Shown here one piece after another: positions 6,155 to 64,000 of a stretch of DNA of 64,000 nt; positions within the stretch are counted from its first letter, which is position 1; each line of letters begins with the position of its first letter. The DNA comes from Deltaproteobacteria bacterium. Its GTDB lineage: Bacteria > Desulfobacterota > Binatia > UTPRO1. The notes beneath the pieces are model-generated. The model did not search any database. It was not told the DNA's origin and saw only the letters and a list, made by a program, of their open reading frames with translations. The DNA is taken from contig JADLHM010000141.1 in assembly GCA_020848745.1 (NCBI GenBank), positions 38,599 to 102,598 on the forward strand, in the 5' to 3' direction. A program made the position numbers and the translations under genes.

Positions 6155-7067
6155 TGGCGGCGGAGGGGAGGAAGGCGGCGCCGGAGACGGCGCTCGCGTA
6201 TCTGGAGCTGGCCGCGAAGTTCTTCGCGGGGCGGGGGATCGCGAGCGCCCGGCTCGACGCGGAGCTGCTCCTCGCGGAGATGCTCGGGACCGACCGCGTC
6301 GGCGTCTATCTGCGTTTCGACCGTCCGCTCGGCCGGAGCGAGGTCGACGCCTACCGCGCGCTCGTGAAGCGGCGGGGCGACGGCGAGCCGGTCGCGCATC
6401 TCACGGGCCGCCGCGAGTTCTGGTCGCGGAGCTTCGTGGTGACGCCGGACGTGCTCGTGCCGCGGCCCGAGACGGAGCTCGTGGTCGAGCGCGCGCTCGC
6501 GGCGGTCGACGCGGCCGGCGGCCGCGCGGGTGTGCTCCGCGTCCTCGATCTCGGGACCGGGAGCGGCGCGCTCGCCGTCACGCTCGCCGCCGAGCTGCCG
6601 AACGCCGACGTGACGGCGGTCGACGCGTCGCCGGCGGCGCTCGCCGTCGCCGCGCGCAACGCCGCGGCCTTCGGCGTCGCGGCCCGGATGCGGTTCCTCG
6701 CGAGCGACTGGACCGCGGCTCTTGCCGCCGGCGCGCGCTTCGACCTCGTGGTGAGCAACCCGCCCTACGTCCCCTCGGGCGACCTGGCGGGCCTCCCGGC
6801 CGAGGTGCGGCGCGAGCCCGCGCTCGCGCTCGATGGCGGCCCCGACGGCCTCGCCGCGTACCGCCGGATCGCCACCGAGGCGGCGCGCGTGCTGGCGCCG
6901 GGCGGTACGCTCCTCGTCGAGGTCGGCGCCGGCCAGGCGGCGGCCGTCGCCGCGCTTCTCACCGACGCCGGTCTCGCCGCCGTCGGCTGCTTCGCCGACC
7001 TCGCCGGCATCGAGCGCGTCGTCGTTGCGGCGGCCGCGGCTGTGCCTGCGACGCGGGCGGCGGCGTC

Positions 7068-7071
<4 letters not shown>
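6154..7071 (+). CDS. prmC: release factor glutamine N5-methyltransferase
   Basis: HemK/PrmC with [10 protein letters not shown] and NPPY motifs; start overlaps prfA stop (TGATG). Confidence 0.9.
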
Positions 7072-8320
<1,249 letters not shown>

Positions 8321-8324
<4 letters not shown>

Positions 8325-9664
8325 GCGCGGGACGCGACGTCCTGCTCGTGGTGCCGACGCGCGGCCGGGCCTTCGCGCGCCGGCTCGCGCTGCTCGAAGC
8401 GCGCGGCGAGGAGGCAACCGGCCGTGTCGAGCGGACCGTGCGGACGATCGTCGCCGACGTCCGCAAGCGCGGCGACGCGGCGCTCTTCGCGTACACGAAG
8501 CGTTTCGACGGCGTGGCGCTCGGGGCGCGCACCGTCGAGGTCCCGGCGGCGGAGCTCGCCGAGGCGGCGGCGTCGCTGCCGTCGCCGGTGCGGAGCGCGC
8601 TCGCGCTCGCGGCGCGCCGGGTGGCGGCGTTCCACCGCCGCCAGCGGCAGGGCTCGTGGAGCTTCCGTGACGCCGCCGGCGCGCGCCTCGGCCAGCAGGT
8701 GCGGCCGCTCGATCGCGTCGGAGTCTACGTGCCGGGCGGTACCGCGGCGTACCCGTCGTCGGTCCTGATGAACGTCATTCCGGCCAAGGTCGCGGGCGTC
8801 GGCGAGGTGATCGGCGTGACGCCGCCGGGGCGCGCCAGCGCCGAGGTGCTCGCGGCGGCGCACATCGCCGGCATCGACCGGCTCTTCCGGGTCGGCGGCG
8901 CCCAGGCGATCGCGGCGCTCGCCTACGGAACGCGCTCGATCCCGCGCGTCGACAAGATCTGCGGCCCCGGCAACGTGTTCGTCGCGACCGCGAAGCGGCT
9001 CGTCTTCGGTGCGGTCGACATCGACATGATCGCCGGGCCGAGCGAGGTGCTGATCGTCGCCGACGCCCGCGCGCGCGCCGACCTCGTCGCGGCCGACCTG
9101 CTCTCGCAGGCCGAGCACGACCCGCTCGCGGCGGCGATCCTCGTGACGCCGTCGGCCGCGCTCGCGGAGCGGGTGGCGCGCGCCCTCGCGGCGCAGCTCG
9201 GCGAGCTGCCGCGGCAGGCGATCGCGCGGCGCGCGCTCGCGCGCTACGGCACGGCCTTCGTGACCGCGACCCTCGCCGAGGCCGTGGAGCTCGCGAACCG
9301 CATCGCGCCCGAGCACCTCGAGCTCGCCGTCCGCCGTCCCGAGCGCTGGCTCCCGAAGGTGCGCCACGCCGGCGCGATCTTCCTCGGCGAGCACGCGCCG
9401 GAGCCCTTCGGAGACTACCTCGCCGGTCCGAACCACGTGCTGCCGACCGGCGGCAGCGCGCGCTTCTCGTCGCCGCTCGGCGTCTACGACTTCGTGAAGC
9501 GCTCGAGCGTGATCGCGGCGGGGCCGCGTACGATGGCGACGCTCGGCCCCGTGGTGGCGCGGCTCGCCCGACTCGAAGGGCTCGACGCACACGCCCGCGC
9601 GATCGAACGGCGGCTCCCGCGACGGCGTCGGGACGGCCGCATCACTCGCTCGCGACGATCGTGA
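8321..9664 (+). CDS. hisD: histidinol dehydrogenase
   Basis: HisD motifs (…[16 protein letters not shown]…, SQAEHD…); ATG overlaps murA stop (ATGA). Confidence 0.95.
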
Positions 9665-11460: not shown

Positions 11461-12645
11461 ATGGCGACGATAGGGAGATTATTCCAGCCGCCGAAAGGGC
11501 ACTTCTTCCTCTTCGGGCCCCGCGGCACCGGCAAATCGACCTGGCTCCGGCACGCGTTTCCCGACGCTCTGCGGATCGACCTCCTCGCGCCCGAGGTCGT
11601 GCGCGGCTACGTGGCGCGGCCGGAGCGGCTCCGCGAAGTGCTCGCCGCGCACCCGGACCGCCGCGTGATCGTCATCGACGAGGTCCAGCGCGTGCCGGCG
11701 CTGCTCGACGTCGTCCACGAGGAGATCGAAGCGCGCAAGGGGGCGCGGCGCTTCGTTCTGACGGGGTCGAGCGCGCGGAAGCTCCGGCGATCGGGGGTGA
11801 ATCTGCTCGCCGGTCGCGCCGTCCGTACGGCGCTGCATCCGTTCCTGGCGGCGGAGCTGGGGCCTGCCTTCACGCTCGATCGCGCGCTCGCGACCGGCCT
11901 CGTCCCGCTGGTCTGGGATGCCGCCGAGCCCGAGCGGACGCTCGATGGCTATCTGTCGCTGTACGTGCGCGAGGAAGTGCAGGCCGAAGGCATGGTCCGC
12001 GATCTCGGCGGGTTCGCGCGCTTTCTCGAAGCGATTAGCTTCGCGCACGCGTGCCCGCTCAACCTCGCGAACGTCGCCCGCGATTGCGACGTCAGCCGGA
12101 AGACCGCCGAAGGGTATCTCGCCATTCTCGAAGACCTGCTGCTCGCGTTTCAGGTGCCGATCTTCACCCGGCGCGCGAAACGCATCCTCCAGGCGCATCC
12201 GAAGTTCTTCTGGTTCGATGCCGGGGTCTATCGATCGGCGCGGCCTGCCGGACCGCTCGATCGCCCCGAGGAAATTGCAGGACCCGCGCTCGAGGGTCTC
12301 GTCGCCCAGCACCTGCGGGCCTGGATCGACTACACGGCGAACGACTGCCGGCTGTACTACTGGCGCACCAAGGCGGGGAGCGAGGTCGACCTCGTCGTCT
12401 ACGGGCGCGCGGGATTCTGGGCCTTCGAGGTCAAGAACACGCGCCGCGTGCAGGCGTCCGACCTCCGCGGCTTGCGCGCGTTCCGCGACGACCATCCCGC
12501 GGCCGAGCTCGCGCTGCTCCATCGCGGCGCCGAACGGCTCGCGATCGAGGGCATCCCCTGCATCCCGATCGCGGAGTTCCTGGCCGGCGTGACCCCCGGC
12601 CGCCCGCTCCCGTCGGTCGGAAGGCCGCGGCGGCCGCGCGCCTGA
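11461..12645 (+). CDS. AAA+ ATPase with DUF4143 (ATP-binding protein)
   Basis: Walker A GPRGTGKST, Walker B VIVIDEVQ, and C-terminal DUF4143-like region (…YYWRTKAGSEVDLVV…). Confidence 0.8.
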   Translation: MATIGRLFQPPKGHFFLFGPRGTGKSTWLRHAFPDALRIDLLAPEVVRGYVARPERLREVLAAHPDRRVIVIDEVQRVPALLDVVHEEIEARKGARRFVLTGSSARKLRRSGVNLLAGRAVRTALHPFLAAELGPAFTLDRALATGLVPLVWDAAEPERTLDGYLSLYVREEVQAEGMVRDLGGFARFLEAISFAHACPLNLANVARDCDVSRKTAEGYLAILEDLLLAFQVPIFTRRAKRILQAHPKFFWFDAGVYRSARPAGPLDRPEEIAGPALEGLVAQHLRAWIDYTANDCRLYYWRTKAGSEVDLVVYGRAGFWAFEVKNTRRVQASDLRGLRAFRDDHPAAELALLHRGAERLAIEGIPCIPIAEFLAGVTPGRPLPSVGRPRRPRA

Positions 12646-12980
12646 GGCGCGTCAGGTCCGTTACGTGCGGCGCCGCGTGCCCGCGACCTCGTCGATCTCG
12701 GTCCAGAGGTCGTCGAGATCCAGCACGAAACCCGGGCACCCGGGACCGCGCCCCTCGCCGGCTCCTGCGCCTCGGGCACGATGTCGAGGCGTTTCGTAAC
12801 GTCACGAGCTTCGACCACCTCGCGCGCGTGCGATCCGGATCTGCTCCTCGAGGCACGGCAGCAGATCCGCCTGATCGATCGCCGTCTCGAGCTGCCCGAT
12901 CAGATCACGCACCCGGCCGACCAAAGACGTACCATCGTCCGCCGAACTTGGTGAGGACGGGCGCGAGGGCCCGGAGCAGG

Positions 12981-13274
12981 TCAGCGGCGGTGGGGTCGGT
13001 CGACACGACGGAGCGCCTTTCCCACCCGGACGTGGGTTTCGAGGTCGGCCTCGCGGTCGGCCGCGGTGGGCCAGGTCGGCTGCTGGCGGGCGACCTGGCG
13101 TCGGAGCGCGTCGCCCACCTGAAAGCACCACGCGACGCCCCGGCGCCGGCGCTCCTCGAGCCACTGCTCGGTCTTCGCGGCTTCCAGGGTTTCCCAGTCG
13201 CGTCGCGCGAAGCGCGCGATGTCCTCCGGGCGCACGAGGGCGAGCCTATACGTTCCGTTCGCCAGCTCAAGCAA
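12981..13274 (-). CDS. hypothetical protein or gene fragment
   Basis: 97-aa ORF with protein-like composition (MLELANGTYRLALVRPEDIARFARRDWETLEAAKTEQWLEERRRRG…); neighbouring out-of-frame ORFs (12802..13164, 12399..12818) suggest a decayed gene spread over three frames. Confidence 0.2.
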   Translation of the reverse strand: MLELANGTYRLALVRPEDIARFARRDWETLEAAKTEQWLEERRRRGVAWCFQVGDALRRQVARQQPTWPTAADREADLETHVRVGKALRRVDRPHRR

Positions 13275-13392
13275 GGGTCAGGCGACGGGAGGCGTCCGTG
13301 CGCATGGAGGCCGACATCCGAGACCCCGTCGCTGCCCTTCGACCATTGCGGCGACCGCGGTTGCGCTCGTGACGGCGGTTGCGGGTAGCGGA

Positions 13393-13719
13393 TCATCCGC
13401 GCGACGGCCGGGCTCGTCGTGCCTGCGTTCGTCCTGCCCGCTTCCCGGATCGGCCTCCGGTCGGCCGCGCCGCGGCGGCCGCAAAGTGCGCCCTCACCTC
13501 GTCCAGGGAATAGGTTCGCGGATCCTTCCGGCTCGCCTCGATCATGCGCCAGAAGCGAGGGTTGGACATGAGCATCACGTCCTCCAGGTCGCGCCCTTCC
13601 ACACCGATCACGATGGCGCATGGCCGACCGTTGCGGGTGATGAGGATCCGTTCCCGTTGGGCATCTTCGAGGGTGGCGCTGAGGCCGCTCTTCGCTTCGC
13701 GAATCGCCAGCACTCTCAT
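13393..13719 (-). CDS. Phd/YefM family type II antitoxin
   Basis: MRVLAIREAKSGLSATLEDAQRERILITRNGRPCAIVIGVEGRDLEDVML…; ATG 13719 overlaps the stop of the upstream toxin gene (ATGA). Confidence 0.8.
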   Translation of the reverse strand: MRVLAIREAKSGLSATLEDAQRERILITRNGRPCAIVIGVEGRDLEDVMLMSNPRFWRMIEASRKDPRTYSLDEVRAHFAAAAARPTGGRSGKRAGRTQARRARPSRG

Positions 13720-14012
13720 AGGATCTCCTTTGTGGTCCGCCGACCCTTTCGGAGTACCGCCCGAACGATCACCAGTCTGGTCGAGCTGTCGACGTCGTAG
13801 ATCACGCGGAATTCCCCGACGCGAAGTTGCCACACCGGCTGAACGTGCTCGAACGGCGGCACCACCCCGGGCAACTGCTTGCGACGCGGCGTCTCTTGCT
13901 GGGGATCGTTGCGAAGGTGCGTCATGATCTCGTCGAGGATTCGGTTGCGGTCGTACGAGCGGATCGTCGCCAGATGATCCACAGCCAACTGCGCGATCCG
14001 AACGCCGAACAT
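13716..14012 (-). CDS. ParE/RelE family type II toxin
   Basis: 98-aa ORF with the RelE/ParE C-terminal core (…WQLRVGEFRVIYDVDSSTRLVIVRAVLRKG…); coordinates from the ORF track. Confidence 0.75.
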   Translation of the reverse strand: MFGVRIAQLAVDHLATIRSYDRNRILDEIMTHLRNDPQQETPRRKQLPGVVPPFEHVQPVWQLRVGEFRVIYDVDSSTRLVIVRAVLRKGRRTTKEIL

Positions 14013-14127
14013 CAGAGACTACAACTGTAGTCACACAGCCCCGCGGCGCGCAAGCCCGCTCGTTCATATCTTCAACAAGAGCTTCTCTGGCCATGGTTGG
14101 CCCGGGGTCGATTTCGATTGACGGGCC

Positions 14128-14215
14128 TATTTCCAACACCGCCTTTCGTGCCGTCCCCGTTGCGAAGAGTGCATCGAAGGAGGATCTCCGAGCCATTCGA
14201 ACCCTGCTCGCGATG
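14128..14215 (+). repeat. degenerate duplicate of the 5' UTR/RBS/start region of the DGR target gene
   Basis: cctttcgtgccgtccccgtt..cgaaggaggatctccgagccattcgaaccctgc vs 14415-14500 gttttcgtgccgtctcccgtt..cgaaggaggatctccgATGcgcgttccagttcgaaaccttgc; third weaker copy gtcgatagaaggaacctcatcga at ~14314-14338. Confidence 0.5.
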
Positions 14216-14380
14216 ACCGTGTCCGGACGATTTCGGCGGACTACAGCGCATCGTCGAGATCGTACCGGTTGAGGCATCGTGCCTGCCGTCCTCCGTTCGC
14301 CGCATGCCGAGTCCTCGAACGAAGTCGATAGAAGGAACCTCATCGAGGTCGGCCCGGCGGAAACGCTCGCCATTTTTCGA

Positions 14381-14407
14381 TTGACCGGGGGGGGGGGGGG
14401 GTAGGCT
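14381..14407 (+). promoter_or_regulatory. candidate sigma70-type promoter with homopolymeric G15 spacer (possible phase-variable promoter of the DGR target gene)
   Basis: TTGACC (14381-86), G x15 (14387-14401), TAGGCT (14402-07); ~67 nt before ATG 14474; AGGAGG RBS at 14461-66. Confidence 0.4.
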
Positions 14408-14473
14408 ATCGCCAAAGCCGTTTTCGTGCCGTCTCCCGTTCCGTAGATTCCGTCGATCGAAGGAGGATCTCCG

Positions 14474-15424
14474 ATGCGCGTTCCAGTTCGAAACCTTGCG
14501 CTGGCGGCGCTCGCCGTCGTCGCACTTTCCGCCAGCGCTGCGCGGGCCGCGACCCCAGCCCAGAAGTGCCAGGCCGGTAAGAACAAGGCCGCCGGGAAGT
14601 ACGCCGCCTGCCGCCACGGCGCCGAGGCCAAGCTCGCCACCACCGGCGACGGCGCGGCCTATGCAACGGCCATCGGCAAGTGCACGACCAAATATGGAGC
14701 CGCCTGGCAGAAGCTCGAAGCCAACGCCGGCGGCGCCTGCCCGAGCAACGGCGACGAGACCGCGATCGGCACCGTCGTCGACGGCTGCACGACCAACATC
14801 GCGACCGCCGTCGGGGGCGGGGTGCTGACCGATTGTCCGGCGGACCTGGCGGCGTGTCTCGCGGCTCCGCAAGGGCAGCGCCTGAAGACGGAGCAGTACG
14901 CCTGCTACGACGCCGGGGGCGTGGTGATCCCCTGTGCCGGCACCGGGCAGGACGGCGAGCTCCAGAAGGGGTTGGCGCGGAGCTATACCGACAACGGCGA
15001 CGGTACGATCACCGACGACCGGACGGGCCTCATGTGGGAGAAGCTGTCGGACGACGGCAGTCTCCACGACAAGGACAATTACTACACGTGGACGAACGCC
15101 TTCGCGGTGAAGATCGCGGGCTTGAACGCGGGTGGAGGCTTCGCCGGCCATACGGACTGGCGGTTGCCCAACGTCAACGAGCTCCAGAGCCTCGTGAGCT
15201 ATGGGGCGGTGAACCCGTCCGTAAGCGCTGCGTTCAATACGGCGTGCGCCCCGGCGTGTACCGTGACGACCTGTAGTTGTACCCAGTCGAACTTCTATTG
15301 GTCGGCTACGACGTATCAGGACAGTCCGTCGCTCGCGTGGCTCGTGTTCTTCTTCGACGGCGACGTGTACGCGGACGGTAAGCCCGACAACTACTATGTT
15401 CGCGGAGTGCGTGGCGGCTCGTGA
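14474..15424 (+). CDS. DGR target (variable) protein: secreted Cys-rich protein with C-terminal DUF1566/Lcl-C-type domain
   Basis: Sec signal MRVPVRNLALAALAVVALSASAARA; C-terminal motifs GLMWEK, WRLPNVNEL, YWSATTY, YYVRGVRGGS typical of DUF1566; last 143 nt form the VR. Confidence 0.9.
   Translation: MRVPVRNLALAALAVVALSASAARAATPAQKCQAGKNKAAGKYAACRHGAEAKLATTGDGAAYATAIGKCTTKYGAAWQKLEANAGGACPSNGDETAIGTVVDGCTTNIATAVGGGVLTDCPADLAACLAAPQGQRLKTEQYACYDAGGVVIPCAGTGQDGELQKGLARSYTDNGDGTITDDRTGLMWEKLSDDGSLHDKDNYYTWTNAFAVKIAGLNAGGGFAGHTDWRLPNVNELQSLVSYGAVNPSVSAAFNTACAPACTVTTCSCTQSNFYWSATTYQDSPSLAWLVFFFDGDVYADGKPDNYYVRGVRGGS
15282..15424 (+). repeat. DGR variable region (VR) at 3' end of target gene
   Basis: 143 nt matching the TR at 16063-16205 with 21 mismatches, all at TR adenines; the last ~30 nt (tatgttcgcggagtgcgtggcgg) are identical to the TR. 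Confidence 0.85.
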
Positions 15425-15471
15425 TCGATCATTGGATCATTTGAAGGTTTGACCATTTGATTTCGGGGGGT

Positions 15472-45566: not shown

Positions 45567-45850
45567 GCAGCCGCTCCTCGCTCCGACGCCATGACCGCGC
45601 GCGCCGCCTCGCTGTTCCGACGCCGCGGCGACGCCGTTCGCGTCGCCGCCGCGGTCCTTCGTCCGGCGCTATTTACGACGTGCGCGCCGGCGGTACCAGT
45701 ACCGCGAGGCGCGCGCGCGGAGCCGCGGTTCACCTTGACACTCCAGGGGTGCTTCGTTACGCTCCGCGGCCTTCATACGACTGTTTGGGTATCGCACGAC
45801 TGGCGTTTGCGTGGAGCACCACGAGGAAGTGCGACCTTCAGGAGCCGAAC

Positions 45851-45887
45851 GCCTGGGCCTCTGACTAGGAGGGGTCCAGGCTTTTTT
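45851..45887 (+). terminator. intrinsic terminator-like hairpin inside the 5' leader of serC (candidate attenuator)
   Basis: gcctgggcc…ggtccaggc stem (one mismatch) followed by TTTTTT, 39 nt upstream of the serC ATG; TTGACA at 45735 with TACGCT 17 nt downstream. Confidence 0.35.
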
Positions 45888-56699: not shown

Positions 56700-57437
56700 G
56701 TGCTCGCCGCGCTCGGGCATGCGCTCGCGCCGTTCGGCCTGAACCTGATCGGCGTCACGACGCCCGCCGCCTACGACGCGCTCGCGCCCGCCACGCACCG
56801 GCTGGGCGCGGTCGATGCCGGGGCGATCGTGGTGATCGGGAACGGCGGGGCGGCGTTCTGGCGGGCCCATCGCGCGCGCCTCGCGCGCCGTCCGGAGGCG
56901 GCGGCGCCGCACCCGCTCGACGCGTTCACGACCGAGGTGCTGCGGCGACATGCCCTGCCGGTCGCGGCCCGCGCCGGCGGACGAGCGGCACTGCGCCTGC
57001 CCTTCGAGGACACGGAGCGGCCGCTGTCGTTCGTGCATCTCGCGGAGGCGGCGGGGCTCGGCCGCCGGAGCCTCCTCGGCGTGCTCGTGCATCCCGAGTT
57101 CGGGCCGTGGATGGCGCTCCGCGGCGCCCTTCTCGTCGCCGCCGCGCCGCCCGCGCCGCGGCCGGCGGAGGGATTCGATCCCTGTCCGTCGTGCCGGGAC
57201 CGTCCGTGCGTCGGCGCCTGCCCGGCCGCGGCCGTCTCGTTCCCCGCCGGTTGGGATGTGCCGGCGTGCGTCGGCCATCGCGTCGAACGCGAGGACGCCG
57301 GCGCGAATCCGTGTCCCGATCGCTGTCATGCCCGCGTGGCCTGCATCTACGGCCGCGCCCACCGCTATCCGGACGACGCTCTCGGGTACCACCACCGGCG
57401 CGCCTTCGCGGCCGTTCGCGCTAGATCGGCAGGGTGA
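56700..57437 (+). CDS. hypothetical Cys-rich protein with ferredoxin-like CxxCx4Cx3CP motif
   Basis: CPSCRDRPCVGACP cluster near the C-terminus; GTG start. Confidence 0.35.
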   Translation: MLAALGHALAPFGLNLIGVTTPAAYDALAPATHRLGAVDAGAIVVIGNGGAAFWRAHRARLARRPEAAAPHPLDAFTTEVLRRHALPVAARAGGRAALRLPFEDTERPLSFVHLAEAAGLGRRSLLGVLVHPEFGPWMALRGALLVAAAPPAPRPAEGFDPCPSCRDRPCVGACPAAAVSFPAGWDVPACVGHRVEREDAGANPCPDRCHARVACIYGRAHRYPDDALGYHHRRAFAAVRARSAG

Positions 57438-58467
57438 CGTGGATGGCGGTGCCGCGGCGCACCCCCGTCCGGATGCGGAGCTCGCCACCCATCATCTCGA
57501 CGCGCTCGCGCATCGTCGTGAGGCCGAGCCCGGCGAGGCGAGGCTCGGCGGCGTCGAAGCCGACGCCGTCGTCGACGATCGTGAGCACGATACGGTGGCG
57601 CCGGCGCGCCAGGTTCACGCCCACCTGCGAGGCGCGCGCGTGGCGCGCGACGTTGGTCAGCGCCTCCTGGACGATCCGATAGAGGTGCAGCTCGTACTCG
57701 GTCGTGAGCGCGTCGCCGACCGGAACCGTCGTGAGCCGGAGCGCGAGTCCGTGGCGGAGCGCGAAGGCCTCGGCGTGCCGGCGGATCGTCGACTCGAGCC
57801 CCTCCGCGAGGAGCTCCGCCGGATGCGTGTGGTCGACCAGGCGGGCGACCGACTCGGTGATCTGCCGCACCGTGGCGTGCGTCGCCGCGAGGGTCGGTCG
57901 GACGTCGTCCTCGACCGCGCCGGGGGTGCGCTCGAGCGTCTCGAGCAGCGCGTCGATCGTGCCGACGGCGCGGCCGATGTCCTCGTGCAGCTCGCGCGCG
58001 AGGCGCCGGCGCTCGGCGTCCAGCAGCTCGAGCATGCGCTGTCCGAATTGCCGCTGCGCGGCCTCCATGTGCGTGCGCTCGGTGACGTCGCGGGCGACGC
58101 CGAACACGTACGACTCGCCGCCGATCTCGAGCCGCGCGAAGCTCACCTCGCTCGGGAAGAGGGAGCCGTCCTTGCGCCGCGCGCGCACCGACAGCACCAT
58201 CCCCGGTCCGAGCGGCATCGTGGCGATCGCCTGGCGATAGAGGGCGAGCGGGACGTCGGGATTGACGTCGGCGATCGTCATCCCCTGTAGCTCCTCCCAG
58301 CTCCACCCGCCGAGCTCGAAGCCGCGTTGATTGACGTAGCGGAAACGGCCGGCCTGATCGGTGAGGAAGAAGGCTTCGCTCGACATGTCGGCCATCTGGC
58401 GGAAGACGGCGAGATCGAGCGCGGGAGGAATCGCCTGAGCGACCGGCGGGTCGTGGGAGGCGGGCAC
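57421..58467 (-). CDS. cytoplasmic PAS-sensor histidine kinase (HisKA_3/HATPase_c), paralog 1
   Basis: PAS domain; H-box LARELHEDIGRAV; G-box DDGVGF…GLGLTTMRERVE. Confidence 0.85.
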   Translation of the reverse strand: MPASHDPPVAQAIPPALDLAVFRQMADMSSEAFFLTDQAGRFRYVNQRGFELGGWSWEELQGMTIADVNPDVPLALYRQAIATMPLGPGMVLSVRARRKDGSLFPSEVSFARLEIGGESYVFGVARDVTERTHMEAAQRQFGQRMLELLDAERRRLARELHEDIGRAVGTIDALLETLERTPGAVEDDVRPTLAATHATVRQITESVARLVDHTHPAELLAEGLESTIRRHAEAFALRHGLALRLTTVPVGDALTTEYELHLYRIVQEALTNVARHARASQVGVNLARRRHRIVLTIVDDGVGFDAAEPRLAGLGLTTMRERVEMMGGELRIRTGVRRGTAIHVTLPI

Positions 58468-58499
58468 GGCGGTCGCTTAACGTCGGCGCCGCGCCAGCG

Positions 58500-59591
58500 T
58501 CAAGTCGCGGCCGCGCGCGCGTCCGCGCCAGCGCCGCGCGGTGCGCCGATCGGCAGCACGACGCGGACTTCGGTGCCGCCCCGAGGACGGCTCCGGATGG
58601 TGAAGACGGCGCCCATGATCTCGGCTCGCTCGCGCATCGTCGCGAGCCCGAGGCCCCGCGACTCGCTCTCCGCCCCCGCCGGGGAGAAGCCGACTCCGTC
58701 GTCGTGGACGGTGAGAAGCAAGCGCTGGCCGCGGCGCGCGAGCCGGACCACGACCTCGCGCGCCCGCGCGTGGCGCGCGACGTTGGCGAGCGCCTCCTGC
58801 GCGATGCGATAGAGGTGGAGCTCGTGCTCGTCGTCGAGCGGCTCGGCGAGCGGCGGCGTCGAGATGCGGGAAGCGAGGCCGTGGCGGCGCGCGAACTCGC
58901 GTACGTACGCCCGCAGGCCGTCCTCGAGGCCGAGCCCGAGCAGCTCGGCGGGGTGGTACTCGCGGCAGAGCCGGGCCACCGACTCGGTCATGCCGCCGAT
59001 GGTCGTGAGCGTCGTCGAGAGCGCCGGGCGCATCGCCTCCGCAACGGCGCCGGGCGTCTGGGCGAGGGCGTGGAGGAGCACGCCGACGGTCGCCACCGCC
59101 TGACCGACGTCGTCGTGCAGCTCGCGGGCCACGCGCTGGCGCTCGGCCTCGAGGTTCTCCAGCATCCGCCGCGCGAAGCTCCGTTGCTCCGCCTCGGCCT
59201 GCTTCCGCTCGCTGACGTCGCGGACGACGCCGAAGAGGTAGGCGGCGCCGCCGAAGTCGATCCGCGCCAGGCTCACGTCGGTCGGGACGTAGACGCCGTC
59301 GCGCCGGAGCGTGCGCGCCTCGAACGGCGGGATCGGGCCCCGCACCGCGGCTTCCAGCATGTCGAACAAGCGGACCCGCGGAAACTCGGGCTCGAGGTCG
59401 AAGAGGGTCATGCCGAGGAGCTGTTCGCGCGCATAACCGGTCAACGTGAGCGCGCGCTCGTTCACGTAGCGCAGGTGGGCGGCGGCGTCGGTGAGGAAGA
59501 ACGCCTCGTTCGACATGTCGGCCATGCGACGGAAGACCTCGAGATCGAGCGGCGCGGAGAGGCCCGAGAGCGGGGCGGCCGGTCGGCTCAT
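58500..59591 (-). CDS. cytoplasmic PAS-sensor histidine kinase, paralog 2
   Basis: Same architecture ([15 protein letters not shown]…, HDDGVGFS…[12 protein letters not shown]); ATG at 59591 overlaps the stop of paralog 3. Confidence 0.85.
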
Positions 59592-60745
59592 CGGCTCCGG
59601 GCCTTGGCGGCGCGCGGGACGCGGCGTGGGCTGCGCGCCGGCGTCGGCGCCGCCGTCGACGGCGCGCGTGCGGCGAGCGGCAGCGGGCGGGTGGCGTCGA
59701 CCCGCAGCTCGACGCGGACCTCGGTCCCCCGGCGCGCTGCGGACCGGACGGCGAGCGTCGCGTGCATCAGCTCGGCGCGCTCGCGCATCGTGACGAGACC
59801 GAGCCCCGCACCGGCCGCCGCGTCGGCCGAGAACCCGACGCCGTCGTCGCGGATCGAAAGGACGAGCTGCCCGAGTCGCGTACGGAGACGCACGATCACC
59901 CGACGCGCGCGCGCGTGGCGGGCGACGTTGAGGAGCGCCTCCTGCGCGATGCGATAGAGGTGCAGCTCCCGCTCGTGGTCGAGGAGGCCGGTGGTCGACG
60001 TCGTCGCGAGCTCGAGCGCGAGCCGGTGGCGTTGGGTGAACTGTACGACGTGCGAGCGCAGCGTGCCCTCGAAGCCGACCTCGAGCAGCTCCGAGGGATG
60101 ATAGTCGCGCACCATCCGCGCCACCGACTCGGTGATCTGCCGGATGCTCGCGTGCGTCTCGGCGAGCGCCGGACGGACGACGGGGGCGATCGAGTCCGGC
60201 GTCTGTTCGAGCGCGTGCAGCAGTACGCCGACCGTCGCGATCGCCTGGCCGACGTCGTCGTGCAGCTCGCGCGCGACCCGCTGGCGCTCGGCTTCGAGCG
60301 TCCGCAGCATGCGCTGCGTGAAGGTCTTGCGTGTCGCCTCGAGCTGTTTCCGCTGACTGATGTCCTGCACGACGCCGAACATGAAGCTCGCCCCGTCGAT
60401 CTCGAGGCGCGCGACGCTGACCTCGACCGGCACGATCGTGCCGTCCTTGTGGCGGCTGATCGTCTCGAACGGCGGGACGGGACCGTGACGGAGGTTCCGC
60501 ACGAGCGCCGCGAGCCGGTCGGGCGGAAAGTCCGGGTTGACGTCGGAGATCGTGAGGCCGAGGAGCTCCTCGCGGGTGTAGCCGCTCCACCCCGAGCTGC
60601 GATCGTTCACGTAGAGGAAGCGGCCGCGCGCGTCGCAGAGGTAGAACCCTTCGTTCGACATGTCCGCCATCTGGCGGAACACGGCGAGATCGAGGGCCGG
60701 GTTCGGGGTCGGCTCGGGAAGCGGACGAAGGAGGCGCGTCGCCAC
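59588..60745 (-). CDS. cytoplasmic PAS-sensor histidine kinase, paralog 3
   Basis: Same architecture ([15 protein letters not shown]…, RDDGVGFS…[12 protein letters not shown]) with an Ala/Pro/Arg-rich C-terminal tail. Confidence 0.85.
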
Positions 60746-60820
60746 GAGCGGACGCTACTGCCGTCCGTTTCCGAGGGTCAAGGCGGGCCGGACGGAGCCC
60801 GGACGGCGCGTCGGCGCTGG

Positions 60821-61048
60821 CTATTTCTCGAGCACGATCACCCAGCGTGCCGCCCCGGCCTCCTCGGAGACGACGTGGTGGCCCTCCGCTTCCGCGGCGC
60901 GCGGTAGGTCCCGGGCGCCGCGCGGGTCGTCGAGGACGAGCTCGAGCAGGTCTCCGGGCGCCAGGTCGGCGAGGACCACCTTCGTCTTCGCCCACGAGAG
61001 CGGGCAGGGAACTCCGCTCAGATCGAGTCGACGCGGCACCGTCATCAC
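60821..61048 (-). CDS. tusA: TusA/SirA family sulfurtransferase
   Basis: 75 aa with CPxP motif ([10 protein letters not shown]). Confidence 0.8.
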
Positions 61049-61149
61049 GATTCTTCCCTAGCAAAGTCGAGAGGATGCCGCGACCGCACGGCTTGCCGCG
61101 GCGGCCCCGCGCGCTTGACAGGTCAGCGGTCGGCCGGGATAACCCGTCG

Positions 61150-63015
<1,866 letters not shown>

Positions 63016-63093
63016 TCCGCGTCCCGCCCCGCACCGAGCGCGATGCGCCGAGGGGCCGCTGCCCCGCGGGCATGCGGAGCTCGCCTCGTCGCT

Positions 63094-63156
63094 CGGTCGG
63101 GAATCCCCAGCGCCTCAAACCCGCCGCAGCCTCTCCGACTTGCGCACGACGCGAGC
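63094..63156 (+). repeat. REP/MITE-like repeat unit, copy A
   Basis: ggtcgggaatccccagcgcctcaaacccgccgcagcctctccgacttgcgcacgacgcgagc; ~85% identical to the reverse complement of 63300-63365. Confidence 0.6.
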
Positions 63157-63275
63157 CGTGCTCGCTCCTCACCGACTCCCCACGCCCGCGGAACGAGGCT
63201 CGCTGCGCATCGCGCTTCGGCATGGCGCTGGACGCACGAGGGCAGATCCGGCGTGCGACGCGGACCGCGTTGGGG

Positions 63276-63391
63276 CGGGTCGGGGATCGCTTCGGGGAGC
63301 GCCAGCTCGCGTGTGCGCAAGTCGGAGAAGCTGGGTCGGGCTTTAGGCGCTGGGGACCACGTGCCGCGCGACCGTAGAAGCGATCCCCGAC
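63276..63391 (-). repeat. REP/MITE-like repeat unit, copy B, bracketed by 17-bp perfect inverted repeats
   Basis: Inverted repeats gggtcggggatcgcttc (63276-92) and gaagcgatccccgaccc (63375-91); the internal segment 63300-63365 is the reverse complement of copy A. Confidence 0.55.
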
Positions 63392-63456
63392 CCGGCCCAT
63401 GGCAGCGGCGGTTGCTTCGCCGAATCGGCACCTACGTGCACGTTGCGTGACCGTCG

Positions 63457-64000
63457 CTACCCGACCGCGCGCTCGAGCGCGGCGCGCAGGTGGCGCTCGA
63501 AGTCGAGGTACGTCATGCCGAGCGCCTGCTTGAAGGCGGCGTCGCTGCCGTCGGCGGTCGCCATGGCTTCGAGGAGGCGGCGGACGTTGTAGGCGCCCTT
63601 GTGATCGAGGAGGTACTTCGCGGCGAAGTACGCCTGCGAGTACGCGAGGCTCGCCTGGTCGCGATCGAAGCGGGTGAAGCCGTTCTCGAGGTCGCCGAGG
63701 GCGAGGAGGTTGCCGTCGGCGACCGCCATCCGGAGCCGGTTGGTGCGGCCCGCGTCGTCGGTCTCCTCGGCCACCTGGGCCAGGCCCTCGTTCAGCCACA
63801 CCGGCGCCTTGCCCTTCGAGAGCGTGACGATCGCGGCATGGGCGTACTCGTGACGGACGGTGCGCGCGAGCCGCTCGTTGCCGCGCGCGAGTCCGCCGAT
63901 CGGCATCTTGATGCGGCCGTCGTAGATGCCGCCGCTCCAGTGCGGCGAGCCGGTGACTTCGCGGAAGGTTTCGTCGGGGTAGAGGACGACCTCGAGGCGT
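63457..64000 (-). CDS. putative zinc metalloprotease (HExxH), 5'-truncated by window edge
   Basis: HEYAHA motif; the reading frame continues upstream to the end of the window without a stop (…SGGIYDGRIKMPIGG…). Confidence 0.45.
   Translation of the reverse strand, partial: RLEVVLYPDETFREVTGSPHWSGGIYDGRIKMPIGGLARGNERLARTVRHEYAHAAIVTLSKGKAPVWLNEGLAQVAEETDDAGRTNRLRMAVADGNLLALGDLENGFTRFDRDQASLAYSQAYFAAKYLLDHKGAYNVRRLLEAMATADGSDAAFKQALGMTYLDFERHLRAALERAVG

Follow-up and report, generated by a model that had tools for sequence, protein, structure and literature searches.

What occupies the interval between two convergent genes near one end of the 64-kb stretch of DNA analysed here (the window), and how did it come to be there? 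The interval runs from 63016 to 63456, a length of 441 nt at 72-75% G+C, between the stop codons of typA on the plus strand (63013-63015) and Peptidase_MA_2 on the minus strand (63457-63459). The original prediction placed a MITE- or REP-like inverted repeat pair there, between convergently transcribed typA and metalloprotease genes. That setting is confirmed by the stop-codon positions, by the 92% identity of the TypA product to a 621-aa 'GTP-binding protein TypA [Polyangiaceae bacterium UTPRO1]', and by the match of the other product to Pfam PF13485 (E = 1.4e-18), with a HEYAH motif in its translation and 86% identity to the UTPRO1 ortholog. UTPRO1, the source of the closest TypA, is the name of a MAG and also of an order of the uncultured phylum Binatota (PMC8262859); the window probably comes from a Binatota relative of that MAG. 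The two genes are annotated as follows, the typA start codon having been set by length match.

61150-63015, plus strand: typA/bipA translational GTPase gene, upstream of copy A of the repeat; 621-aa product
63457-64000, minus strand: 3' part of the Peptidase_MA_2 (HEYAH) gene, upstream of copy B of the repeat; continues beyond the window

The inverted repeat pair proved to be real. Its arms (63088-63147 and 63313-63372) are 60 nt long, 80% complementary and separated by 165 nt, and they make up the longest inverted repeat within 400 nt anywhere in the window. Within them, a core at 63104-63156 matches 63305-63356 at 88.7% over 53 nt (blastn, E = 7e-9 in the window search space), and a 20-nt core motif was found at two sites only, the two copies, against 0.04 expected by chance in the window. 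The repeated unit had been described as about 60 nt long; that unit exists, but the homology is wider and extends over about 145 nt, with 63056-63200 aligned to the reverse complement of 63264-63408. Perfect 17-bp inverted repeats were likewise present at the second copy, and they lengthen to arms of 23 nt with 96% complementarity (22/23 pairs; 63271-63293 and 63377-63399), which stand 83 nt apart rather than at the claimed distance of about 100 nt. The motif GGTCGGGAATC was also there (63095-63105), inside copy A and not flanking it as claimed; its exact matches fall in three places only, all within the intergenic region. The two copies stand inverted, 63 nt apart, and the features of the interval can be listed in order.

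63037-63048, plus strand: copy A outer stem, left arm AGCGCGATGCGC; pairs with 63205-63216, 12/12
63056-63200, plus strand: copy A, a hairpin-forming repeat of about 145 nt delimited by alignments; 40 nt past the typA stop
63064-63079, plus strand: copy A closing stem, left arm; pairs with 63176-63191 (16 nt, 88%, 14/16)
63104-63156, plus strand: copy A conserved core; 88.7% to the reverse complement of 63305-63356
63176-63191, plus strand: copy A closing stem, right arm; pairs with 63064-63079
63205-63216, plus strand: copy A outer stem, right arm GCGCATCGCGCT; homology to the related locus L023 stops here
63217-63263, no strand: spacer between the copies; no homolog found
63264-63408, minus strand: copy B, a repeat of about 145 nt delimited by alignments; 48 nt past the peptidase stop
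63271-63293, plus strand: copy B closing stem, left arm; 96% complementary to 63377-63399
63305-63356, minus strand: copy B conserved core, from blastn
63377-63399, plus strand: copy B closing stem, right arm; pairs with 63271-63293

The region thus described consists of two diverged, inverted members of one non-coding imperfect-palindrome repeat of about 145 nt, each with a conserved core of about 55 nt within a long G+C-rich closing stem. Covariance-model scores were 144 bits for copy A and 118.6 bits for copy B. The closing stem of copy A is weaker than the 23-bp stem that copy B has at the equivalent position, and the outer 12-bp stem of copy A is kept in L023 (11/12 pairs) and missing from copy B. 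A foldback artefact of assembly was rejected because the copies are only 70-80% identical.

A protein-coding gene across the region, for example the 135-aa plus-strand ORF at 63043-63450, is scarcely credible as an alternative. Long ORFs do stand open on both strands, as is usual at 72% G+C, but a search of 5.8 billion proteins at E <= 10 yielded no homolog of the 135-aa ORF, a 137-aa minus-strand ORF has no match among 1.84 billion representative proteins, and the long ORFs across the intergenic region have no Pfam match. Moreover, 1-nt indels separate the copies and shift every reading frame, and the ORF would have to cross two inverted copies of one sequence. The absence of homologs and of a Pfam match and the 1-nt indels bear out the earlier judgment that the ORFs here are spurious; a real gene supported by homology across 63043-63450, the finding that would have overturned it, did not emerge. 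The idea that copies of the repeat are mis-called as genes elsewhere was also rejected, since neither ORF matched the large protein collections. Very long ORFs on the minus strand at 58500-61397, 62766-63431 and 62987-63799 (965, 221 and 270 aa, respectively) also overlap real genes of the opposite strand; such overlapping long ORFs are usual at about 70% G+C and are a trap for gene callers.

Searches for known RNAs and transcription signals gave similarly negative results. Rfam 15 placed no family at gathering score in 62900-63600, and the only match at E <= 10 was ivy-DE, which lay outside the repeat core and reached 16.6 bits (E = 4.6) where the gathering score is 41.4. A tRNA or tmRNA origin of the GGTCGGGAATCCCC motif was rejected when ARAGORN found no gene in the window. 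A consensus scan of 62900-63600 for a hairpin followed by a U tract returned 0 terminator sites on either strand, and the region scanned for sigma-70-like promoters held none. The sole Rfam family over threshold in the whole window is a ZMP/ZTP riboswitch aptamer (pfl motif) at 45786-45865 on the plus strand (56.5 bits; gathering score 39).

Comparison with related genomes shows how variable this junction is. Between the window and UTPRO1, the blastn alignment breaks off at 63017 and picks up again at 63474, so the window holds about 400 nt extra relative to UTPRO1. The loci compared are given below by what lies downstream of typA, with TypA identities in brackets.

Window: Peptidase_MA_2, 441-nt spacer; copies A and B
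UTPRO1 (TypA 92%): same peptidase, 32-nt spacer with one 9-bp hairpin; no repeat
P0003 contigs (TypA 90%): convergent gene, likely the peptidase, 48-nt spacer; no repeat (gene map only)
L027 (TypA 88%): convergent gene, spacer of about 1 nt; no repeat
L028 (TypA 85%): same peptidase, 42-nt spacer; no repeat
L050 (TypA 85%): same peptidase, 6-nt spacer; no repeat
L052 (TypA 83%): same peptidase, 2-nt spacer; no repeat
L023-L025 (TypA 90%): a different plus-strand ORF without a Pfam match; one A-like copy
L026 (TypA 83%): cytochrome genes between typA and the peptidase; no repeat
L051 (TypA 84%): another gene, 203-nt spacer (6878-7080); no repeat

A filled site of 441 nt in the window therefore stands against empty sites of 1-48 nt in six relatives, a contrast of the kind that has been used as an argument for the mobility of MITEs (PMC3184786). 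In L023, a positional homolog of copy A lies in forward orientation after typA (11932-12076), and it was recovered by nhmmer at E = 7.7e-16 with a model built without L023 sequence. Its closing stem is retained through a double change from C-G to U-A. These comparisons show a homolog of the repeat at the equivalent place in a non-sister genome, and they show an ancestral junction with a convergent spacer of 1-48 nt, the repeat having been gained, or repeatedly lost, during the divergence of UTPRO1-like Binatota. In the typA tree the pairs are (window,UTPRO1), (L023,L027) and (L026,L028), and about 10 kb of flanking DNA likewise places the window nearer UTPRO1 (80-86%) than L023 (78%). Since the repeat occurs in two non-sister lineages and is missing from the sister of each, at least two gain or loss events are required; since it is absent from the sister and from most relatives that retain both genes, neither typA nor the peptidase needs it.

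Two smaller hairpins were seen at these junctions. The 32-nt spacer of UTPRO1 (L019 11867-11898) is almost entirely one 9-bp G+C hairpin without a U tract, CGCCGGCGC-CCGCA-GCGCCGGCG, which is a candidate bidirectional terminator common to the convergent genes. Between the typA stop and the repeat of L023 (11885-11913) there is a perfect 9-bp hairpin, GCTCGCGTC-GGTCGGT-GACGCGAGC, and the left arm of the outer stem shares bases with it, which allows alternative pairings. The ORF downstream of the L023 copy (12092 onward) has no Pfam match and looks, from its sequence, like an ordinary multi-pass membrane glycosyltransferase; a role for it as transposase or cargo of a larger element was rejected on the lack of a Pfam match and on this membrane-protein appearance.

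The typA / Peptidase_MA_2 junction is in addition a recurrent synteny breakpoint in the clade. L026 has a multihaem cytochrome / cytochrome b cluster of about 3.5 kb inserted at the junction (11858-15425), and the neighbours are different again in L023, L051 and the P0121 contig; in P0121, by its gene map, a peptidase 88% identical to that of the window is separated by a 26-nt spacer from a different convergent gene.

These rearrangements are consistent with a segment that never moved: one that arose once after typA, underwent inverted duplication in place (by template switching at the palindrome, for example) and was later deleted, through slippage in UTPRO1 and L027 and through partial loss by rearrangement in L023, with no mobility and possibly no function. 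All three known copies stand at this one junction, and none was found elsewhere in the sequences searched, so a locus-bound history is compatible with the data. The homology between the window and L023 (blastn) ends exactly at 63216, the right end of the copy A outer stem, before the different downstream gene. Long palindromes are also prone to deletion, which would favour such losses. The same history nevertheless requires at least three independent clean losses down to spacers of 1-48 nt. It further requires copy B, which is more diverged from A than the L023 copy is, to predate the split and then to have been lost in L023, where its remnant was not detectable in the downstream DNA (best local match 10 nt, equalled in 113/500 shuffles). 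We consider this account possible but rather unlikely.

The three copies differ in where they resemble each other. Core identity was 87% between A and B, 72% between A and L023 and 70% between B and L023, while in the flanks A and B are about 60% identical, A and L023 71-86%, and B and L023 42-59%. Copy B is thus no recent local duplicate of A, because the flanks of A and B are more diverged than those of A and L023; the closest cores, on the other hand, are those of the two copies within one genome. Gene conversion between the inverted copies is a possible source of the similar A and B cores, as is a constraint on the core that was relaxed in L023; under the first of these, conversion would keep the A and B cores alike.

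The potential to form long hairpins, part of the original prediction, was supported by RNA folding of copy B and of the whole region. Fold z-scores were -4.7 (plus strand) and -6.1 (minus strand) for copy B and -5.1 and -7.2 for the whole region, and copy A alone gave -1.1 and -1.8. The A, B and L023 copies fit one hairpin architecture in an RNAalifold consensus, in which 88% of pair cells are standard pairs, compared with 30-49% when the partners were slid by 1-3 columns, and in which 8 pairs are double-changed, compared with 0-4 in the slid controls. Of these compensatory pairs, 5 fall in the 20-bp closing helix, where one position reads C-G in A, G-C in B and U-A in L023. Covariation statistics are limited here by a sample of three sequences and an uncertain stem alignment, and a DNA palindrome gives its signal equally on both strands; our conclusion is therefore confined to one shared feature of the three copies, a long closing stem at a fixed position relative to the core. 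A comparison of G-U with A-C pairs as a test for the transcribed strand was discarded, as the structure had been predicted on the tested strand.

Could the repeat be a functional structured RNA, either a 3'-UTR element or a 3'-UTR-derived sRNA, with one module for each convergent gene? The core would then be an active protein- or RNA-binding site, and the closing stem would be selected for pairing only. The 87% identity of the A and B cores, closing stems that vary yet pair (5-8 compensatory pairs), the fold z-scores of copy B and of the whole region (about -5 and -7 for the latter), and the forward orientation of all three copies relative to the gene immediately upstream are in line with such a role. 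Against it, the repeat is absent from the sister and most relatives that have both genes, and its core is least conserved precisely in the positional homolog in L023 (72%). It has no Rfam match and no promoter-like site in the regions scanned, three sequences are too few for covariation statistics on a DNA palindrome that signals on both strands, and one orientation in 3/3 copies has a chance probability of 0.25. Taken together, these observations make a functional RNA of this kind unlikely.

Copy number bears on whether the repeat has moved. A third copy was sought in the window by nhmmer, blastn and an unfiltered covariance-model search, and none was found (the best non-training match of the covariance model reached 20 bits, E of about 0.1). 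In about 110 kb of the relatives' loci there were no copies beyond the typA site. In the public collections, where the window's TypA has no exact record and the source genome is thus absent, a scan of genome contigs with a 21-nt core pattern gave 3 chance matches (in Agathobacter, Hyphomicrobiales and Bacteroidaceae), a scan of metagenome contigs with a two-block pattern gave 15 matches, all in unrelated coding DNA and without flank similarity, scans of viral contigs with a core 16-mer and the 17-mer of the copy B stem gave only single chance matches, and distant blastn of a plasmid collection gave nothing. The lack of a further copy in 64 kb excludes a REP-like density of about one per 10 kb and is compatible with a low copy number. 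The proposal of a REP/BIME or miniature transposable element is accordingly supported in part: the repeat is non-coding, forms strong hairpins and appears as an insertion relative to related genomes, but dispersed copies were not found in the sequences searched.

Other marks of transposition gave mixed results. MITEs are defined by terminal inverted repeats, direct-repeat target duplications and stable folds (PMC3184786). Both copies have terminal inverted repeats around a non-coding core. Target-site duplications were not visible by eye in the 10-nt flanks of either copy, whether these were taken from the ends of the stems or from those of the homology; the boundaries of the repeat are fuzzy, and a duplication of 2-3 nt is compatible with the absence of a visible one. 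As for the ends of a parent IS, the 17-mer of the copy B stem was matched only singly and by chance, in viral contigs. REPINs are mobilised by RAYT transposases, and no RAYT gene was noticed in the window. Neither a recombinase nor a transposase was found near the repeat in the loci examined. A dif/Xer site, an integron attC site, a retron msr/msd and an invertible promoter switch were dropped as candidates for want of an adjoining recombinase, integrase or reverse transcriptase gene in the loci, and for the position of the repeat at the 3' ends of both genes.

The inverted arrangement of A and B could instead mark the long terminal inverted repeats of a single foldback unit of about 350 nt (63056-63408), the remnant of a larger transposon or integrated element with its interior deleted. 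The copies are indeed inverted, only 63 nt apart, and form the longest inverted repeat in the window. However, L023 has A alone, followed by a membrane-protein ORF without a Pfam match and with no second end within 0.5-1.1 kb; identity between the two ends drops to about 60% outside the core; and there is no recombinase or transposase nearby at any locus. This makes such a remnant very improbable.

How does the repeat compare with known families? Bacterial MITEs such as Correia/NEMIS of Neisseria, Nezha of cyanobacteria and RUP of pneumococcus likewise consist of 100-400 nt of non-coding intergenic DNA in which terminal inverted repeats (23 bp, 22/23, in copy B) enclose a core; they too form very stable stem-loops and show filled and empty sites among relatives (PMC3184786). 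In contrast to MITEs, the repeat described here came with no target-site duplication, dispersed copies or parent IS in the searches above, and its terminal stems vary between copies, whereas TIRs recognised by a transposase are normally conserved. The ERIC/IRU sequences of enterobacteria are imperfect palindromes of about 127 bp, present in tens to hundreds of copies. They are alike in size, in being imperfect palindromes with a conserved centre, in their transcribed intergenic setting and in their patchy presence at orthologous sites; they differ in having no sequence relation to the repeat and belonging to a different phylum, and in that one locus is known here.

REP/BIME sequences resemble the repeat as G+C-rich palindromes that often occur in inverted pairs and are enriched between convergent genes (PMC3184786; bioRxiv 10.64898/2026.03.23.713779), and the repeat shares this extragenic, convergent-gene, inverted-pair position. 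REP units, on the other hand, are 20-40 nt long and present in hundreds of copies, while the unit here has about 145 nt, with no other in 64 kb. The identity as a REP proposed in the original prediction is not upheld, the unit being far longer than a REP and its fold branched. The U-tract-less ('I-shaped') terminators of high-G+C bacteria are likewise stable G+C hairpins right after convergent stop codons, but the element here is far larger, branched, duplicated and dispensable in relatives, and a terminator role for it is putative. The closest resemblance of the repeat is to MITEs and to imperfect palindromes of the ERIC type; it is a proven member of neither the MITEs nor the REP/BIME family.

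Of the explanations considered, we favour a palindromic element of the MITE/ERIC type, low in copy number and either non-autonomous or once mobile, over a conserved regulator, with each copy transcribed as a 3' UTR, and we put the chances of this being correct at about even. Transcription as 3' UTR is inferred from the placement of the copies, which are forward and 40-48 nt past the stop codon of the gene upstream. Such a 3'-UTR copy would fold into a stable stem-loop, which may act as a U-tract-less terminator or as a barrier to 3' exonucleases. The likeness of the A and B cores would, on this reading, be due to gene conversion between the inverted copies. REPs between convergent genes serve as terminators and stabilisers (bioRxiv 10.64898/2026.03.23.713779), and SPRITE repeats have a similar positional bias (PMC3184786). 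One point against this reading is that the closing stems vary in sequence from copy to copy, as is not usual for TIRs recognised by a transposase. Stated plainly, the repeat is of an ordinary kind, either inserted or unstable, and only putatively mobile.

A bolder version of this idea is a portable, orientation-specific 3'-UTR RNA module of the Binatota that moves between gene ends, which we hold to be very unlikely. Its conserved core would bind a protein or RNA partner and be presented by a freely varying closing stem, and the module would install a ready-made terminator or stabiliser, or a 3'-UTR-derived sRNA. Read-through transcripts of the pair might then form dsRNA of about 60 bp that would couple the convergent genes.

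To our knowledge, no small repeats or 3'-end signals have been described in the Binatota, a widespread uncultured phylum, and the repeat is probably a new example, in this phylum, of a known kind of small palindromic repeat. If confirmed as a family, it would be a marker of genome plasticity, several lineages having rearrangements at this junction, would account for spurious ORF calls in Binatota genomes of 70% G+C, and would provide a candidate natural terminator or stabiliser module. For now it amounts to an insertion polymorphism of a common sort that is well documented locally, and not to a new mechanism.

The DNA upstream of tusA-typA is also variable in this clade. Paralogous PAS/HisKA_3 histidine-kinase genes stand in tandem at 57427-60700 on the minus strand of the window, with blastn self-matches at 66-70%. 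L023 has three such genes (6295-9635) and UTPRO1 a single 714-aa kinase (L019 7396-9540), and the histidine-kinase copy number thus differs across the clade.
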